A DNA stretch of 35,241 nucleotides from Chthoniobacterales bacterium (GTDB lineage: Bacteria > Verrucomicrobiota > Verrucomicrobiia > Chthoniobacterales > UBA10450), in assembly GCA_040005675.1 (NCBI GenBank), contig JBDTYN010000090.1, forward strand, positions 1-35,241, read 5' to 3'. This document shows positions 4,400-29,600 of the stretch, one piece after another (position 1 is the first letter of the stretch; every line of letters begins with the position of its first letter). Under the pieces are notes generated by a model that saw nothing but the letters and a program-made list of their open reading frames with translations, did no database searches and was not told where the DNA came from. The translations under genes were made by a program, and so were the position numbers.

Positions 4400-5578
4400 A
4401 TGAATAACGGCAAAAAATCGGTGGTTAGGCGTGTTTCCATTTTTATCGTCGCCGGTCTCGCCGCGATGTGCCTTCTCGGCCTTTCGAGCTGCGAGAAAGG
4501 CGGAGACGGATCCGCCGCTAGCGATGTCATTAAGTTGGGCGAGTACGCGTGTCTGACGGGTCAGACGGCGAGTTTCGGCACGGCTTCCCATAATGGCGCT
4601 ACGCTCGTGATCGACGAAGTGAATGCTGCCGGTGGGGTGCTCGGCAAAAAGATCAAACTGATTACGGAGGATGACCAATCCAAACCCGGCGAAGCGGCAA
4701 CCGCGGTCCGCAAATTGATTTCACGCGACCACGTCTCGGCCCTGATCGGTGAGATCGCTTCCTCACGGTCGCTCGAAGCGGGACCGATCGCGCAGCAGAA
4801 TAAAATTCCCATGGTTTCGCCGGGTTCGACGAATCCCAACGTCACGCGAATCGGCGATTACGTCTTCCGCGTCTGCTTCATCGACCCATTTCAGGGAACC
4901 GTGATGGCAAAGTTCGCCCTCAATTCGCTGCACAAGACCCACGTCGCCGTGTTAACCGACGTGCGACAGGATTACAGCGTCGGTCTTGCGCAGTTCTTCA
5001 AGGATTACTTCACGAAGAACGGGGGTACGATCGTCGGCGAACAAAGCTACAGCTCGGGCGATCAGGATTTTAAGGCCCAGTTGACGGCGCTGAAAGGAAC
5101 CAACCCGGAAGCGGTTTTCCTCCCAGGTTACTACAATGAGGTAGGACTGATCGCACGGCAGGCGCGGGAACTTGGAATCACTGTGCCTTTCCTGGGCGGC
5201 GATGGCTGGGATTCACCGACGTTGACGCAAATCGGCGGCGCGGCAATCGAGGGTAATTTCTTTGCGAACCATTTCTCGACCGAAGACCAGTCGCCGGTCA
5301 TTCAGGATTTCATTCGCAAATACAAAACACGGTTCAACAAAGAACCTGACGGAATGGCGGCGCTCGGGTTCGACGCAGCCAAAGTGCTGCTCGACGCGAT
5401 CACGCGCGCAGGCAGCGTCGAGAACACGAAGATCCGCGACGCGCTTGCCGCCACAAAGGATTTCCAAGGCGTAACCGGCCGGATCACGATCGACGAAAAT
5501 CGGAACGCGAACAAATCGGCGGTGGTTCTCACGATCAAGGACAAGGGATTCCATTACGTCGAAACAATTGCGCCGTAG
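4400..5578 (+). CDS. livK: Branched-chain amino acid ABC transporter substrate-binding lipoprotein (LivK/LivJ family)
   Basis: Internal ATG 4400 gives MNNGKKSVVRRVSIFIVAGLAAMCLLGLSSC, a lipoprotein signal. The body (IKLGEYACLTGQTASFG, DDQSKPGEA, VSALIGEIASS) is typical of Leu/Ile/Val-binding periplasmic proteins. It is followed by livHMGF. Confidence 0.9.
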   Translation: MNNGKKSVVRRVSIFIVAGLAAMCLLGLSSCEKGGDGSAASDVIKLGEYACLTGQTASFGTASHNGATLVIDEVNAAGGVLGKKIKLITEDDQSKPGEAATAVRKLISRDHVSALIGEIASSRSLEAGPIAQQNKIPMVSPGSTNPNVTRIGDYVFRVCFIDPFQGTVMAKFALNSLHKTHVAVLTDVRQDYSVGLAQFFKDYFTKNGGTIVGEQSYSSGDQDFKAQLTALKGTNPEAVFLPGYYNEVGLIARQARELGITVPFLGGDGWDSPTLTQIGGAAIEGNFFANHFSTEDQSPVIQDFIRKYKTRFNKEPDGMAALGFDAAKVLLDAITRAGSVENTKIRDALAATKDFQGVTGRITIDENRNANKSAVVLTIKDKGFHYVETIAP

Positions 5579-5630
5579 GGACAAGAACCCTGCGGTTTTC
5601 GATTCTTAGGCGTGCTGCGCCCTCGCCGCT

Positions 5631-5712
5631 GTCATGTCGAGCGAAGCCGAGACATCCTGCTGCGTTACCTTGAGGTTATATCTAGGGATTCCTCGACCTC
5701 GCTCGGAATGAC
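5631..5712. repeat. Intergenic hairpin repeat, copy 1 (REPIN/MITE-like inverted-arm element)
   Basis: Left arm is gtcatgtcgagcgaagccgagacatcc (5631-5657). Right arm is gggattcctcgacctcgctcggaatgac (5685-5712). The arms are mutual reverse complements and homologous to the copies at 8493-8584 and 26634-26714. It lies between livK and livH. Confidence 0.85.
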
Positions 5713-5746
5713 ACAGATGCAGCGCTTACCCCGCGATAGCTAACGC

Positions 5747-6670
5747 GTGAACCAGTTTATCCAACAGCTGATCAACGGTCTCTCGCTGGGATCGATTTAC
5801 GCGTTAATCGCGCTCGGTTATACGATGGTCTATGGCGTTCTGCGCTTCATTAATTTCGCACATGGCGATGTCTTCATGGTTGGCGCTTACACCGGCTACT
5901 ACGCGGCACGCTGGATAAACGGCCGGTTCAACACCGAGCCCTCCATCCCCTTTGCGATTCTGGTCCTGACTATTTCAATGGTCGTCTGCGCGATTGTCGG
6001 AATCGTGATCGAACGGCTCGCCTACGCGCCACTTCGCAATCGAGCCCGCCTCACCGTTCTCATCACAGCCATCGGCGTTTCTCTCTTCCTGGAGTACGGA
6101 GGCCAGCAATTCTTCGGCGCCGGGCCGGAAAACTTCCCTCAGCTCATGCCCAACTACGCCGTGCTGAACACGCCGGCCTTCACCATCATGAGCAATCAAC
6201 TGATCGTGCTCGGAGTGACTGTGGCCCTTCTGATTGGCCTCACCTTCGTCGTTCTGAAAACAAAAATTGGCACAGCGATGCGCGCGCTTTCATTTAATCC
6301 GACGGCCGCCTCGCTCATGGGGATCAACAATAGCGTCGTGATCTCGTTCACCTTCGGCCTCGGCTCCGCGCTGGCCGCGGCCGCGGGAATCTTATGGGCC
6401 GTGAACTATCCTTCGATCAATCCGTTAATGGGCCTGCTGCCGGGCGTAAAAGCCTTCGTCGCAGCCGTGCTCGGTGGCATTGGAAATATCCCGGGCGCCG
6501 CCCTCGGCGGCCTCATCCTCGGAGTGACCGAAACACTGGTCGTCGGCTACAGCGATAAACTGCACATCCCGCCGAGCTATCGAGACGCCGTCGCGTTTGT
6601 CGTTCTGATCGTAATCCTCCTGTTTAAACCCTCAGGTCTGCTCGGTAAAACTGGCTCCGAAAAAGTGTGA
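5747..6670 (+). CDS. livH: Branched-chain amino acid ABC transporter permease LivH
   Basis: GTG start. The N-terminus MNQFIQQLINGLSLGSIYALIALGYTMVYGVLRFINFAHGD is the canonical LivH signature. The protein is polytopic. Confidence 0.95.
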   Translation: MNQFIQQLINGLSLGSIYALIALGYTMVYGVLRFINFAHGDVFMVGAYTGYYAARWINGRFNTEPSIPFAILVLTISMVVCAIVGIVIERLAYAPLRNRARLTVLITAIGVSLFLEYGGQQFFGAGPENFPQLMPNYAVLNTPAFTIMSNQLIVLGVTVALLIGLTFVVLKTKIGTAMRALSFNPTAASLMGINNSVVISFTFGLGSALAAAAGILWAVNYPSINPLMGLLPGVKAFVAAVLGGIGNIPGAALGGLILGVTETLVVGYSDKLHIPPSYRDAVAFVVLIVILLFKPSGLLGKTGSEKV

Positions 6671-7713: not shown

Positions 7714-8473
7714 GCTGCGCGACTGCACAATGCAGTTCGGCGGCCTGACCGCGCTCTCGAACTTGTCGCTCCAGATCGGTCCTCACGACCTCGTCGGGCT
7801 GATTGGTCCCAATGGCGCCGGGAAAACAACCGTCTTCAACATCATCACCGGAATCTACGAACCAACATCCGGCGCGATCGATCTTGGCGGCCAATCCATC
7901 ATCGGCCGAAAAGCGTCTGCGATCGCGGCGCGGGGCATTGCGCGCACGTTTCAAAACATCCGGCTTTTCGCTTCACTCTCGGTCTACGATAACGTCCGTG
8001 CGGCTTTCACGATGCGGCTGAAGCACGGCATCGCACACGCTCTCTGGCGCGGCCGGCCATTTCAGAAAGAAGAGGCGGAGATCAGTGACCAGGTCGTGGA
8101 GATTCTGCGCATTTTCCATCTGGAGGACTCTCGAGAGACCCCCTGCAAAAGTCTTTCCTATGGCGATCAGCGACGACTCGAAATCGTGCGGGCTCTCGCG
8201 ACCCGTCCCCAGCTGCTCCTCCTCGACGAGCCGGCGGCCGGCATGAACCCGCGCGAAAAAGAACAATTGATGGAGTTGATCCAATTCGTGAAGGAGAAAT
8301 TTCAGATCGCGGTCCTGCTGGTCGAACATGACATGAAGGTGGTGATGGGAATCTGCGCACGCGTCGCCGTGCTCGATTACGGGATCAAGATCGCGGAAGG
8401 AACTCCGGCGGAGGTGCAGAGGAACCCGAAGGTGATCGAAGCCTACTTGGGCCAGGAAGCTGTGACGCAATGA
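7697..8473 (+). CDS. livG: Branched-chain amino acid ABC transporter ATP-binding protein LivG
   Basis: Walker A is GPNGAGKTT, the signature is LSYGDQRRLEI, and Walker B is LLLLDEPAAG. The C-terminal PKVIEAYLG tail is typical of LivG. The gene overlaps livM by 17 nt. Confidence 0.95.
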   Translation: MSSLLELRDCTMQFGGLTALSNLSLQIGPHDLVGLIGPNGAGKTTVFNIITGIYEPTSGAIDLGGQSIIGRKASAIAARGIARTFQNIRLFASLSVYDNVRAAFTMRLKHGIAHALWRGRPFQKEEAEISDQVVEILRIFHLEDSRETPCKSLSYGDQRRLEIVRALATRPQLLLLDEPAAGMNPREKEQLMELIQFVKEKFQIAVLLVEHDMKVVMGICARVAVLDYGIKIAEGTPAEVQRNPKVIEAYLGQEAVTQ

Positions 8474-8492
8474 ACGCGATCGATTACCCGCG

Positions 8493-8584
8493 GTCATCCC
8501 GAGCGCAGCGCAGCGGAGTCGAGAAGCCCCGCAGATCACGCTTCACATACTGCGACGGGATTCCTCGGCTTCGCTCGGAACGAC
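8493..8584. repeat. Intergenic hairpin repeat, copy 2
   Basis: The left arm gtcatcccgagcgcagcgcagcggagtcgagaagcccc carries a small internal gcagc duplication. The right arm gggattcctcggcttcgctcggaacgac (8557-8584) ends 3 nt before the livF ATG. The 30-nt right-arm block tgcgacgggattcctcggcttcgctcggaa is identical to copy 3, and after one C/T difference both continue gacat. Confidence 0.85.
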
Positions 8585-8587
8585 ATC

Positions 8588-9298
8588 ATGCTTGAGCTGA
8601 AAGACCTGGCCGTTTCTTACGGCTCCATCACCGCACTGCACGATGTCTCCTTGCGTGTCGGGCAGGGCGATATCGTCACATTGATTGGCGCGAACGGAGC
8701 GGGAAAATCAACGACGTTGCGCGCGATTTCCGGATTGCTTAAGACGCAGAGGGGCAGCATCCGCTACGAAGATCAGGAGATTGCGAACGAAGCGCCCCAT
8801 AAGATTGTCGCGCGCGGGATTTCGCATGTGCCGGAAGGCCGCATGGTCTTCGCGAACCTGACGGTGCACGAGAATCTGCTGATGGGCGCTTACCTGCGCA
8901 AGGATCGGTCAAAACTCGCTGCAGATTTCGATTTTATCTTCGAAATCTTTCCGCGCCTCAAGGAACGGTCGCGGCAGGTGGCGGGCACTTTATCGGGTGG
9001 CGAACAGCAGATGCTGGCCATCGGGCGCGCTTTGATGAGCAAACCGCGTTGCCTGATGCTGGACGAGCCGTCGCTCGGGATCGCGCCGATCCTGGTGAAG
9101 ACGATTTTTCAAAAAATCGTGGAGATCAACAGGTCGTTAGGCATCACAATTTTGCTCGTGGAACAGAATGCCAATCTTGCGCTCGAAGTCTCGAACTATG
9201 GGTACGTTCTCGAAACCGGTCACATTATCTTGCACGATCAATCGCTCGCTTTGCGCGCCAACGAACGGGTGAAAAGCGCGTATCTCGGCGGAAACTAA
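8588..9298 (+). CDS. livF: Branched-chain amino acid ABC transporter ATP-binding protein LivF
   Basis: Walker A is GANGAGKST, the signature is LSGGEQQMLAIGRAL, and Walker B is LMLDEPSLG. The length of about 236 aa and the position after livG fit LivF. Confidence 0.95.
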   Translation: MLELKDLAVSYGSITALHDVSLRVGQGDIVTLIGANGAGKSTTLRAISGLLKTQRGSIRYEDQEIANEAPHKIVARGISHVPEGRMVFANLTVHENLLMGAYLRKDRSKLAADFDFIFEIFPRLKERSRQVAGTLSGGEQQMLAIGRALMSKPRCLMLDEPSLGIAPILVKTIFQKIVEINRSLGITILLVEQNANLALEVSNYGYVLETGHIILHDQSLALRANERVKSAYLGGN

Positions 9299-10254: not shown

Positions 10255-11151
10255 GTGAAACGTTGTCTTATCGCAAATCCCATTGCCGGATCCGCCACGG
10301 CGCCCGACGATCTGCGCGAAAAATTTCAGCGCCTCGAGCCAGTGGACATCCGTGTCACGCATGCGCCGGGCGAGGCGGAGAAATTTGCGCGCGAGGCGGT
10401 CGCCGATGGTTGCGACATGCTCGTGGTGGCCGGAGGTGATGGCACCTTGAACGAGGTCGTGAACGGTATCGCTCCTCACGCGGCCGAGGTACTACTGGCA
10501 CTCGCACCGAGCGGCACCGGCAATGATTTTGCCCGTGCGCTCAATCTCCCTGACGCTCTTGACGACTGTCTCGATCTTATTCTGTCAGAAAAGATTCGCG
10601 CGGTGGATCTAGTCCGCGTGCAGAGCGATCGCCTCCGCTATTTTGTTAATGTTTCGGCCGGGGGTTTTAGCGGTCTCGTGAATGAAAAATTAACCGCGGA
10701 AATGAAGCAGACGTGGGGGCCACTTGCGTATCTGCGGTGTGCCGCCGCAGCGCTGCCCGAATTGCGCGCCTATCGAACCGAAATCACACTCGACAATGCC
10801 ACTCCCATCGCGGCTAACCTATACAACGTCGTTGTTGCCAATGGTCGCTACGTTGCGGGCGGAATCCCAATCGCGCCGGATGCGGAGCCCGACGACGGAC
10901 TCCTCGATGTCGTGTTAATTCCGGAGAATTCGGGGAGCGATCTCGCCCTGCTTGCGGCGCAGGTTGTGATTGGCACACATCTCACCAGCGCGGCGATTAT
11001 CTTTCGCCGCGCTGCCAGGGTAACGGTGCAGTCTACTCCTGGAATGTGGTTCAATGTCGATGGAGAAATCGTCGGCAACGAGCCGGCGGTGTTTGAGATA
11101 GTCCCCCGCGCGATTCAATTCGTCGCGCCTGCGAAATCAGACAAATCGTGA
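10255..11151 (+). CDS. Diacylglycerol kinase-family lipid kinase (YegS/BmrU type), paralog 1
   Basis: GTG start. The DAGK catalytic-domain motifs VVAGGDGTLNEVVNG and PSGTGNDFARAL are present, along with a C-terminal accessory domain (NVDGEIVG). Confidence 0.85.
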   Translation: MKRCLIANPIAGSATAPDDLREKFQRLEPVDIRVTHAPGEAEKFAREAVADGCDMLVVAGGDGTLNEVVNGIAPHAAEVLLALAPSGTGNDFARALNLPDALDDCLDLILSEKIRAVDLVRVQSDRLRYFVNVSAGGFSGLVNEKLTAEMKQTWGPLAYLRCAAAALPELRAYRTEITLDNATPIAANLYNVVVANGRYVAGGIPIAPDAEPDDGLLDVVLIPENSGSDLALLAAQVVIGTHLTSAAIIFRRAARVTVQSTPGMWFNVDGEIVGNEPAVFEIVPRAIQFVAPAKSDKS

Positions 11152-26624: not shown

Positions 26625-26633
26625 AATTGCGAG

Positions 26634-26714
26634 GTCATCCCGAGCGAAGTCGAGGGATCCCGAGGTGTAACGAATAGTTGTGCGACGGGATTCCTCGGCT
26701 TCGCTCGGAATGAC
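26634..26714. repeat. Intergenic hairpin repeat, copy 3 (best preserved)
   Basis: The left arm gtcatcccgagcgaagtcgagggatccc pairs with the right arm gggattcctcggcttcgctcggaatgac over 28 positions, with 1 mismatch and 2 G-T pairs. The loop is 25 nt. It lies between trxB and the GT4 gene. Confidence 0.9.
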
Positions 26715-26746
26715 ATGCCTCCACGTGACCGCCGAGTGAGAAGAGC

Positions 26747-28670: not shown

Positions 28671-29600
28671 GTGCGGGCCGCCTTCTATCGTCCTCCCACG
28701 GTTCTATCCCGGCCGCGGCGAGAGCGCTCTGAAAACGTGAATGATACCGTCGTAATTTTGAATCCTGCTGCGCGAAGCGAGCGGGCTGACCGACAGCGCG
28801 CGCAAATCGAGAATCTCGCGCATAGCGCGGTACTTTGCGCCACGTCACATCGGGGCGAAGCGGAGAAACTCGCCCGGAAGGCGACTGAGGACGGTTACAG
28901 ACGCATCATCGCGGCCGGTGGAGATGGGACGATCAACGAAGTGGTAAACGGCATCGCCGGCGCCGACGTCACCCTGGGGCTGCTTCCGCTCGGGACGATG
29001 AACGTGTTCGCTTCCGAGCTAGGGCTGCCGACCAACGATCTCGGACGTTGCTGGGACATCATTCAGACTGGCAGGACACGGTTGATGGATTTGCCGAGCG
29101 CCAACGGCAAGCATTTCATTCAGCTGGCCGGGGTGGGCCTCGACGCGCAGGTCGTGAAAGAAACGAGCCGGAACTTCAAACGAAGCTTTGGTCCGCTCAG
29201 CTACGTGATATCGGCGGCGCAGATCGCGGCGCGCACCCCGCCGCGGCTCCGGATCGAATCCGAGAACGCGGTCACGGAAGAAGGATCGTTCGTGCTAGTC
29301 GGCAATGGACGGCTCTACGGAGGCCCTTTCCCGTTCTTTAAAAAGGCGCTGCTTGATGACGGCTTGCTCGATGTCCTCGTCTTCAAGCGACTGAACTATC
29401 TCGAAATGATCCGTTATCTGCAGGACGTGATTTTCAGCTCCGAAATCACCTCTCCGGAAGTGGAATACTTCCAGACCAAGGCGCTGCGCGTCAGCAGTGA
29501 GGCGGAGGTGCCAGTGGAAGTAGATGGCGAGCTGATGGGGACGTGCCCGATCGAATTCAGTGTGCGCGGTCGCGCTCTCCGCGTCTTATCGCCGGACTGA
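28671..29600 (+). CDS. Diacylglycerol kinase-family lipid kinase (YegS/BmrU type), paralog 2
   Basis: GTG 28671 sits 8 nt downstream of AGGAGG (28657-28662). Motifs seen: IIAAGGDGTINEVVNG, LPLGTMNVFASELG, EVDGELMG. GTG 28737 is an alternative start. Confidence 0.85.
   Translation: MRAAFYRPPTVLSRPRRERSENVNDTVVILNPAARSERADRQRAQIENLAHSAVLCATSHRGEAEKLARKATEDGYRRIIAAGGDGTINEVVNGIAGADVTLGLLPLGTMNVFASELGLPTNDLGRCWDIIQTGRTRLMDLPSANGKHFIQLAGVGLDAQVVKETSRNFKRSFGPLSYVISAAQIAARTPPRLRIESENAVTEEGSFVLVGNGRLYGGPFPFFKKALLDDGLLDVLVFKRLNYLEMIRYLQDVIFSSEITSPEVEYFQTKALRVSSEAEVPVEVDGELMGTCPIEFSVRGRALRVLSPD

Follow-up and report, generated by a model that had tools for sequence, protein, structure and literature searches.

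Tags-outward palindromic dimers in a Chthoniobacterales contig: likely members of the CGTC-tagged repeat class with a wide host range

Two gaps of an amino-acid ABC transporter operon and one gap beside a thioredoxin reductase gene, all on one contig of a Chthoniobacterales bacterium (Verrucomicrobiota), each contain a doublet of inverted arms. This raises the question of whether the doublets are regulatory DNA of the operon or copies of a dispersed repeat. The contig, complete at 35,241 bp, is referred to here as the window, and its six arms were sought across the full 35 kb. A preliminary description of this DNA had placed the doublets (copies 1 to 3) in the livK-livH, livG-livF and trxB-GT4 gaps, between genes on the same strand and outside coding sequence; Pfam assignments bore out this gene context, and no copy was found in credible coding sequence. 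Repetitive extragenic palindromes (REPs) and REPINs (REP doublets forming hairpins) are among the commonest non-coding repeats of bacteria. We consider it likely that the doublets are REPIN-like, non-autonomous REP dimers whose tags point outward and whose arms each form a hairpin in single-stranded DNA.

The three doublets were recovered within 1-2 nt of the positions first given for them. The arm consensus proposed in the preliminary description matched four arms with at most three mismatches, compared with 0.00 expected from 100 dinucleotide-preserving shuffles, and repeat detection retrieved the family independently (repeats D2, D7, D9, I1, I3, I5 and I9). We also built a covariance model of the arm (R1) from arms of other genomes and ran it on the window; it revealed exactly six arms and no other notable match in 35,241 bases.

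Structure and covariation of the arm

We found that each 28-nt arm was a hairpin in itself, a point absent from the preliminary description. Read from its outer end, the arm runs Y-GTC, A-T-Y-C-C, G-A, G-C, G-N-A, G-(Y)-C, G-A, G-G-R-A-T and C-Y; written as a DNA oligonucleotide, it is d(TGTCATTCCGAGCGAAGCGAGGAATCT). An unpaired YGTC tag leads into a 5-bp stem and a tandem G.A/A.G; a 2-bp clamp then closes a three-base turn, and the C-Y tail is again unpaired. The arm spans nine stem positions, two of which are never Watson-Crick paired, and a 1-nt bulge is sometimes present. Among 200 arms, the GTC of the tag was invariant and the base at position -1 was T in 68%, C in 21.5%, G in 8% and A in 2.5%, so that YGTC was present in 89.5%. 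The tail consisted of an invariant C followed by a pyrimidine (T 69%, C 28%). The first stem pair was A-T in 92 of 102 arms, and the second was T-A in 98 of 102.

Arms for comparison were collected by scanning one genome per GTDB species with the pattern GTCATYCCGAGCGMAG-N0-2-CGAGGRATC, the matches of which are a sample and not a census. In the arms that fitted this pattern, the free Y and R positions covaried in 140 of 141 cases (T with A, C with G, never T with G), and this held in every combination with other variable sites. Arms that were not seeded by the pattern revealed further compensated outer stems, namely ATCCT/AGGAT, ATTCT/AGAAT, ACCCT/AGGGT, ATGCC/GGCAT, ATCTC/GAGAT and ATTTC/GAAAT. 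The inner stem was compensated as well, from GC/GC to AC/GT, CC/GG, GCC/GGC and GGCC/GGCC, and both GA dinucleotides were unchanged across all arms compared. In a set of 102 distinct arms from at least 120 other genomes, 96.6% of the cells were paired versus 88.0% in column shuffles, a value that none of 500 shuffles reached. Six of the seven pairs showed change on both sides, which three of the 500 shuffles equaled, and there were 80 double-changed cells versus 3 one-sided ones. A G.T/G.U wobble occupied only 3 of 714 cells, so the pairing was almost purely Watson-Crick, and shifted registers were paired to only 19-52%. Additionally, a structural descriptor that fixed GTC, GA, GA and C and demanded a perfect 5-bp stem, being otherwise agnostic of sequence, retrieved 249 arms with 12 different stems versus 0 in five shuffles. 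Intermediate cores such as GA-GCTTGTC-GA also exist. This strong covariation supports the hairpin structure of the arm.

These observations bear on an idea that we regard as quite improbable, namely that a conserved host protein (nucleoid, gyrase or IHF-type) or a dimeric, palindrome-binding regulator recognizes the arms as duplex DNA. The near-invariant blocks GTC, GA, GCG.AGC and GA across at least 14 phyla do suggest a conserved recognizer, and bacterial interspersed mosaic elements (BIMEs) of E. coli bind gyrase and IHF. However, the 12 stem sequences are tolerated provided that they are Watson-Crick complementary, a pattern that points to a folded strand and not to a dimer reading specific bases in a duplex. 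The arm, tagged at one end and tailed at the other, also lacks symmetry, and the sites are dispensable in close relatives. Binding of a protein to the hairpin form would be compatible with the REP dimer interpretation.

To locate the constrained unit, we compared pairing within arms with pairing between arms. In 37 cleanly parsed dimers, 15 of which were heterodimers, Watson-Crick pairing within the arm amounted to 96.8% versus 88.1% complementarity between the arms, and where the two arms of a dimer differed, the arms were still self-paired in 44 of 54 cases. When 13 dimers from Verrucomicrobiota were folded together with RNAalifold, exactly the variable positions stayed unpaired in the long hairpin. 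The constrained unit is therefore the arm.

The apex of the arm was GCGAAGC or GCGCAGC and less often GCGGAGC or GCGTAGC. It coincides with the d(GCGNAGC) mini-hairpin, in which two G-C pairs and a sheared G.A close a one-base turn. GCGNAGC is the mini-hairpin of Hirao and co-workers, noted for its extraordinary stability and the most stable one known in DNA; d(GCGAAGC) has a melting temperature of 76.5 °C, compared with 39 °C for the related octamer GCGAAAGC as RNA (reviewed in PMC13037366). This mini-hairpin is known from phage and plasmid priming sites and from biotechnology (PMC13037366), and it is not known to form the center of repeats scattered through genomes. Single arms pointed either way with similar frequency when compared with the upstream gene (15 versus 19, p = 0.61; n = 34, crude gene calls). 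From the DNA-optimal apex, the scarce wobbles and the lack of orientation bias, we infer that the structure is read in single-stranded DNA.

The opposing interpretation gives the elements a primary function in RNA, as cis-acting mRNA hairpins (3'-exonuclease barriers, RNase III or RNase E sites, or modulators of coupling) that set livK:livHMGF and livG:livF expression; we consider it unlikely. In its favor, the long hairpins of copies 3 and 1 folded better as RNA than their shuffles (-62.9 kcal/mol and z = -9.2 for copy 3, z = -2.9 for copy 1), whereas copy 2 was not significantly better (z = -1.35). The small hairpin of the arm, and not the long one between arms, is conserved; this, the few wobbles and the balanced orientation of single arms all argue against it. 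No T-run, which would give a U-tract in RNA, was present 3' of any of the three elements, and the scan for intrinsic terminators was blank at these sites. Rfam gave no match to the element at gathering thresholds and only generic miRNA hairpins under permissive settings, the best at 39 versus 99 bits.

Dispersal and turnover of the dimers

The preliminary description had favored REPIN- or BIME-like doublets of a dispersed repeat and had suggested a search for copies elsewhere. The pattern scan found the arm in at least 120 stretches of other genomes from at least 14 phyla, with the same inverted dimer preferred, and this dispersal, together with the tags-outward preference and the empty sites described below, supports that idea. 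Among the matches listed, record titles assigned 30 to Acidobacteriota, 19 to Verrucomicrobiota, 18 to Chloroflexota, 13 to Proteobacteria, 11 to Bacteroidota (six of them Hymenobacter isolates), 8 to Gemmatimonadota, 7 to Firmicutes and 5 to Planctomycetota; Nitrospirota, Bdellovibrionota and Patescibacteria had 2 each, and Armatimonadota, Dormibacterota and Desulfobacterota had 1 each. At least eight of the stretches came from cultured isolates, so the family is not a binning artefact. Carriers include Hymenobacter sp. 102 (NZ_CP188172.1), the Chloroflexota chromosomes OZ244803.1 and OY760183.1 and the Verrucomicrobiota isolate sgz303538. Besides the 121 seeded elements, about 55 further ones were present in 924 kb of locus DNA, which suggests high copy numbers in the carriers.

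On viral contigs, the pattern scan gave 0 matches, and the full dimer had no BLAST match in 72,556 plasmids and 50,697 phages at the sensitivity of BLAST. With the short consensus arm, BLAST at E <= 10 returned marginal matches only from plasmids and phages. Two unverified human-gut phage contigs contained an arm-like sequence, CGTCATTCCGAGCGTAGCGAgGGAATCT, at 32.9 bits (L129, MT835522.1:14369-14696; stretches of DNA outside the window are numbered with the prefix L) and a compensated ATTGC/GCAAT variant at 17 bits (L130, MT835548.1:21268-21597), and a Natrinema plasmid (L131) gave a match without the tag. These three matches are possibly rare carriage on mobile DNA or chance.

As to architecture, 52 dimers had their tags outward (head-to-head, HH), 5 had them inward (tail-to-tail, TT) and 7 were tandem; all three window copies were HH. 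About half of the arms were single at the detection threshold, some of them with a decayed partner, as in copy 2. Spacers ranged from 11 to 141 nt and were most commonly 30-38 nt. The dimer of Verrucomicrobiota measured about 84 nt, with a spacer of 29-32 nt, CCCG...CGGG ends and a middle of weak similarity, whereas Hymenobacter and Acidobacteriota had conserved spacers of their own. The earlier statement that the loops are unrelated thus holds only in part, since spacer length and ends are conserved in Verrucomicrobiota and even the middle retains weak similarity. The whole dimer is a lineage-level unit, though constraint acts on the arm. Outside the tag, information was confined to position -1 (a pyrimidine in 89%) and weakly to -2, and the boundaries were sharp. 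In 50 of 53 dimers, the junctions lacked direct repeats of at least 2 nt, and no target-site motif was evident beyond the pyrimidine at -1. As had been reported for the window copies, neither a target-site duplication nor a transposase was found at them.

A pair of dimers from Acidobacteriota (L021:6543-6629 and L022:4996-5082) lay at apparently the same site between homologous flanking genes, and their arms differed in concert, with ATTCT/AGAAT in both arms of one and ATCCC/GGGAT in both arms of the other. Independent insertions at a hot spot or a concerted change of the two arms could account for this.

A classical miniature inverted-repeat transposable element (MITE), which the preliminary description had also offered, would be a deletion derivative of an insertion sequence (IS), with terminal inverted repeats of about 28 bp that a DDE transposase supplied in trans would bind in duplex form. 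The inverted arms with sharp GTCAT...ATGAC ends, the short variable interior, the intergenic position and the length of about 80-95 bp would suit such an element. We nevertheless find it extremely unlikely: target-site duplications were missing from nearly all dimers, about half of the arms were singletons, and no IS or transposase with these ends, and hence no parent, was present in 120 loci, the window or the plasmids and phages searched. Compensatory covariation within the arm, moreover, has no role in a double-stranded terminal repeat.

Orthologous gaps were compared as the preliminary description had proposed. It had taken vertical conservation of the same sequence as the mark of a locus-specific regulatory element, and we found the opposite: two of the three window sites were empty in syntenic relatives. 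At livG-livF, the window has a 114-nt gap with copy 2, while the site in L121 is empty, with 5 nt from stop to start. At trxB-GT4, the window gap of 122 nt holds copy 3, and L128 has an empty 14-nt gap; the same gap contains unrelated sequence in L126 and, in L127, a dimer of other arm subtypes (left arm ATGTC/GACAT, right arm a loop-expanded ATTCT/AGAAT). The livK-livH gap of the window is 168 nt long and holds copy 1, and for L121, the closest relative, a centrally deleted, degraded remnant, TGTCATGCTGAGCG-tctct-CGCTCGAC...AATGAG, is a plausible reading of the sequence. No arms were found in the relatives L121, L122, L124 and L125 (15-21 kb each) and L126 (7.6 kb). The window elements are therefore not vertically fixed regulatory DNA. 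The sites empty in close relatives with an intact operon, like the unrelated housekeeping genes that the element adjoins in at least 14 phyla, also argue against a primary function in RNA.

Other insertions were observed in the same gaps. The livG-livF junction of L122, a Chthoniobacterales relative, contains an unrelated palindromic insert of about 150-200 nt with the arms AGTGTAAGTGAAAGTTAATGTGTAGGTG ... CACTTACACTTTAACTTTCACTTACACT (L122:8103-8308), and hairpin elements seem to have landed at this junction repeatedly. A small 23S_rRNA_IVP gene, encoding a four-helix bundle, is inserted between livK and livH in L122 (4974-5336), and an apparent fragment resembling such a gene lies in the trxB-GT4 gap of L126 (5781-5949). 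Small genes of this type appear to share intergenic slots with the repeats.

Known REP families and the search for a mobilizing enzyme

To understand where the family belongs, we compared it with described REPs. Di Nocera, De Gregorio and Rocco (2013, BMC Genomics 14:522) divided REPs into GTAG- and CGTC-tagged superfamilies, the latter including Neisseria dRS3 (CGTC-1) and Rickettsia RPE-6/RPE-4 (PMC3733652). As given in the 2013 text, CGTC REPs have an unpaired terminal CGTC, often TGTC and also CCTC, a short unpaired tail of about CCA and stems that nearly always open with complementary A and T (PMC3733652). HH dimers are dominant, TT dimers rare and head-to-tail dimers negligible, and the spacers of 20-100 bp are conserved in HH dimers; the class was reported from five phyla, had no dedicated transposase and was more alike between hosts than GTAG REPs (PMC3733652). 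The arms studied here share the tag, the A-T/T-A start of the stem and the C-rich tail with the class as the 2013 text portrays it. Their dimers likewise are mostly HH, include both homo- and heterodimers and have lineage-conserved spacers in a similar range, and the family is multi-phylum, highly similar between hosts and without a transposase nearby. These outer features place the element with the CGTC-tagged REPs, among which its core sets it apart and its host range is much broader than described.

The core differed from the published ones. CGTC-1 to CGTC-4 have continuous stems of 8-9 bp and loops of 4-5 nt (PMC3733652), in contrast to the 5-bp stem, tandem G.A/A.G, 2-bp clamp and GNA triloop of the present arm and to its recurrent AGCGN loop expansion, described below. 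The supplement of the 2013 survey gives the REP peptides VIPAKAGI, SFPRKRES, CHSRESGNP, VIPGLDPGI and VIPWLDHGI as well as RHSELVSGS, which is CGTC-2; VIPAKAGI, VIPGLDPGI and VIPWLDHGI are the signatures of CGTC-1, -3 and -4 (PMC3733652). The present arm would read VIPSEARN, a signature absent from the peptides of that supplement, and the published peptides back-translate to cores other than GAGCGNAGCGAG. Literature searches with the arm sequence and six translated peptide signatures gave no match. Hosts beyond the five CGTC phyla of the 2013 text include Verrucomicrobiota, Acidobacteriota, Chloroflexota, Gemmatimonadota, Planctomycetota, Firmicutes, Nitrospirota, Patescibacteria and others. 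Measured against the 2013 text and supplement peptides, the present family and its breadth appear undescribed so far.

Arms of the CGTC-1 type (GTCATTCCCGCGAAAGCGGGAATC, as in Neisseria dRS3/VIPAKAGI) were also observed at L013:7252-7275, at L081:564-587, 1441-1464 and 6362-6385, and at L098:4161-4184 and 5981-6004. These are metagenome-assembled genomes of Terriglobia, Dehalococcoidia and Nitrospirae, whose phyla are absent from the CGTC list in the 2013 text. In L098, the CGTC-1 arms co-occur with the present family.

The GTAG-tagged REPs of Pseudomonas and Enterobacteria, with REPINs and their REP-associated tyrosine transposases (RAYTs), were reportedly described by Nunvar in 2010, Bertels and Rainey in 2011 and Ton-Hoang in 2012. 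As in that system, two inverted REP hairpins make a longer hairpin, every REP is a short, imperfectly palindromic sequence whose foot bears an unpaired tag, and the elements are dispersed, intergenic, non-autonomous and free of target duplications. In contrast, the tag is YGTC instead of GT[AG]G, no cognate RAYT flanked by arms was found in the window or in 120 loci, and the present family is nearly identical across phyla, whereas GTAG families are usually lineage-specific. The subterminal hairpins of IS200/IS605, which are handled by the Y1 HUH enzyme TnpA, offer a second parallel, in that a folded single-stranded hairpin and its unpaired neighbor are recognized, as would be the case here, and no target is duplicated. 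Unlike in IS200/IS605, neither TnpA nor TnpB lay between or beside the arms, and the dimers are symmetric rather than composed of distinct left and right ends.

The partner search consisted of all-against-all clustering of open reading frames (ORFs) from 120 loci, a proximity filter and then Pfam. The arm-adjacent clusters encoded response regulators, SerA, isocitrate/isopropylmalate dehydrogenase, an aminotransferase, SpoU and DAHP synthase. In the 120 loci, no ORF family recurrently adjoined the arms and the close clusters were ordinary metabolic and regulatory genes, so the idea of a REPtron was dropped for these loci; likewise, no cognate RAYT bracketed by arms was found in the window or the 120 loci. 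One candidate stood beside trxB in L128 (8340-9003), where a minus-strand gene for a 153-aa Y1_Tnp protein (IS200/RAYT-like; 8428-8889; Pfam 25.3 versus 23 bits) has a copy of a different palindromic repeat, GGTGGATCG...CGATCCACC (GGTGGATCGAGCAGTCCCTTGCTCGATG...), on either side. It was rejected as the partner because the flanking repeat belongs to another REP family; the L128 unit is REPtron-like, with a different REP family in the same bacterial order. The REP types of the TnpA-Y1 literature were also considered. A survey of TnpA-Y1 reports only GT[AG]G or CnGA feet, none of which fits the arm, and the Alphaproteobacteria, the main carriers of CGTC REPs, are largely without TnpA-Y1 genes (PMC6006769).

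On the REP dimer interpretation, the folded single-stranded arm and its tag would be recognized by a trans-acting enzyme, for example at replication forks. Such an enzyme would copy or move the arm in the way that RAYT/IS200-type HUH enzymes handle GTAG REPs. We put forward more tentatively that the arm is a pan-bacterial module of single-stranded DNA, its invariant YGTC tag, tandem sheared G.A and GNA mini-hairpin being kept across at least 14 phyla by one widespread enzyme that is neither a RAYT nor an IS200 TnpA. This enzyme could be a new class of trans-acting mobilizer or a core replication or repair factor, for example one with a primase-type activity or one that excludes single-stranded DNA-binding protein.

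Several points weigh against the REP dimer interpretation. No mobilizing enzyme was found in the 120 loci and the window, and transposition is deduced from presence or absence and from dispersal. The nearest relatives are about 70-87% identical in their proteins, a distance at which insertion and precise deletion are indistinguishable and exact targets unreadable. The copy count for the source genome covers the 35-kb contig only, with its three dimers. Subfamilies that share ancestry can inflate the covariation counts, and the argument for DNA over RNA is indirect, with few wobbles, crude gene calls and n = 34. The distinction of the family from the four CGTC families is based on the 2013 text and the supplement peptides. 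Finally, single arms folded no better than shuffles under the DNA parameters of ViennaRNA (z about 0). These nearest-neighbor parameters model neither sheared G.A pairs nor a mini-hairpin bonus, so that value is uninformative and the structure of the arm rests on covariation.

The window copies and their operon

The window arms had TGTC tags in four cases, GGTC tags in two and CC(C/T) tails. Copy 1 is composed of a left arm (5630-5657, plus strand; 40.4 bits, E 1.3e-7) with a TGTC tag, a GA-GCGAAGC(C)-GA core and a CC tail, a spacer of about 28 nt (5658-5685) and a right arm (5686-5713, minus strand; 44.1 bits) with a TGTC tag, an ATTCC/GGAAT stem and the loop GAG instead of GAA. The right arm fits the proposed arm consensus with one mismatch. 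In the left arm, ATGTC/GACAT replaces ATCCC/GGGAT through two compensated pairs, and this variant retains its own stem while breaking the complementarity to the partner arm (ATTCC...GGAAT). The same stem was also present in L031, L076, L097 and L127. When aligned with 12 other dimers of Verrucomicrobiota, the spacer was typical of the lineage and closest to that of L076.

Copy 2 has a left arm (8492-8529, plus strand) with a score of only 14.0 bits, a GGTC tag, an 11-nt loop insertion and unpaired stem positions; its 3' stem is degenerate, with GAAGC where GGGAT is expected. The spacer (8530-8557) is followed by a right arm (8558-8585, minus strand; 41.9 bits) with a TGTC tag and a GTTCC/GGAAT stem that opens with a G.T pair. 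Copy 1 had been described as the most diverged; the degenerate arm is instead the left arm of copy 2, with its loop expansion and broken 3' stem. Similar loop expansions were found in L004, L034, L104, L109 and L120. Tandem AGCGN pentamers (GAGCG-CAGCG-CAGCG-GAG...) were observed at window positions 8505-8520 and at L034:6261, L104:2427, L109:3153 and L088:4350 and 7273, and the unexpanded arm already holds two AGCGN units. This recurrent expansion suggests slippage within the arm apex.

Copy 3 is a heterodimer. Its left arm (26633-26660, plus strand; 45.0 bits) matches the proposed consensus exactly, with a GGTC tag and an ATCCC/GGGAT stem, and its right arm (26688-26715, minus strand; 46.7 bits) has a TGTC tag and an ATTCC/GGAAT stem. 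The spacer between them (26661-26687) has CCCG...CGGG ends, which lengthen the long hairpin.

Pfam identified the flanking genes as a livK-like substrate-binding protein (about 393 aa by homology), livH, livM, livG, livF, thioredoxin reductase (trxB) and a GT4 glycosyltransferase. The remaining genes of the window were all housekeeping genes, none of them a transposase, integrase or HUH enzyme. The nearest relatives had about 70-87% protein identity to the window, and the best protein matches were 80-87% identical. Over all loci, the genes that flank elements were 61% tandem, 22% convergent and 17% divergent, compared with a background of 56%, 21% and 23% (crude ORF calls), which gave no clear bias. 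A consensus scan also revealed a terminator-like hairpin of 9 pairs, 6 of them G-C, with a T-rich run (5572-5606, plus strand), which is not part of the repeat. The livK stop codon (5576-5578) falls within this hairpin region, which precedes copy 1 and might attenuate transcription from the binding-protein gene into the permease genes. The scan gave 5572-5596 as the only terminator-like site nearby.

In L123, L124 and L125 (11269-14378), a livK-type gene with conserved upstream synteny was followed by two genes of APC-family amino-acid permeases and no livHMGF; the membrane component downstream of the conserved binding-protein gene is swapped there. Two paralogous DAGK_cat/YegS_C lipid-kinase genes were present on the contig (10255-11151 and 28671-29600). 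Direct repeat D6 of the repeat finder (10368-10411 versus 28853-28896) falls within them and so reflects paralogy, not a repeat element.

In E. coli and Salmonella, REP-BIMEs occupy the malE-malF and hisJ-hisQ intergenic regions. REPs at junctions of binding-protein and permease genes are said to stabilize the upstream mRNA (Higgins in 1982, Newbury in 1987), and this is reportedly the classic position of a REP stabilizer. Copy 1 likewise lies between the binding-protein and permease genes of an ABC importer operon, downstream of the terminator-like hairpin, where it would be placed to stabilize the upstream mRNA; its sequence and tag are unrelated. Further support for a role in RNA comes from the co-directional genes around all three copies, which would be co-transcribed with them, and from the different palindromic element at the livG-livF junction of L122. 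A dimer between co-transcribed genes would be transcribed as an RNA hairpin of about 80 nt, which at livK-livH and livG-livF might have secondary effects on mRNA decay, by blocking exonucleases, or on translational coupling. Copy 2 abuts the livF start, with 2 nt (8586-8587, TC) between its right arm and the ATG at 8588, at a junction where the relative L121 has tightly coupled genes. The analogy with malE-malF and hisJ-hisQ makes a stabilizing or stoichiometric role in the liv operon a plausible side effect. Such a role cannot explain the existence of the family, because the neighboring genes are unrelated in at least 14 phyla and the orientation of single arms is unbiased.

We know of no mobilizing enzyme for the CGTC-tagged class since its description in 2013, and the present family sharpens the question of what recognizes and spreads such orphan REPs. 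If the single-enzyme reading were true, it would supply their missing partner, which would be traceable by phylogenetic profiling. Relative to the five phyla of the 2013 text, the host range of the class is widened to at least 14 and now includes dominant soil phyla, gut Firmicutes and bacteria of the candidate phyla radiation. The covariance model and the structural descriptor provide a handle for censuses and for a partner search by co-occurrence, and they help to avoid spurious calls of hypothetical proteins. In the Chthoniobacterales bacterium itself, the elements mark recent insertions or deletions in an amino-acid ABC transporter operon, where they may alter subunit stoichiometry.

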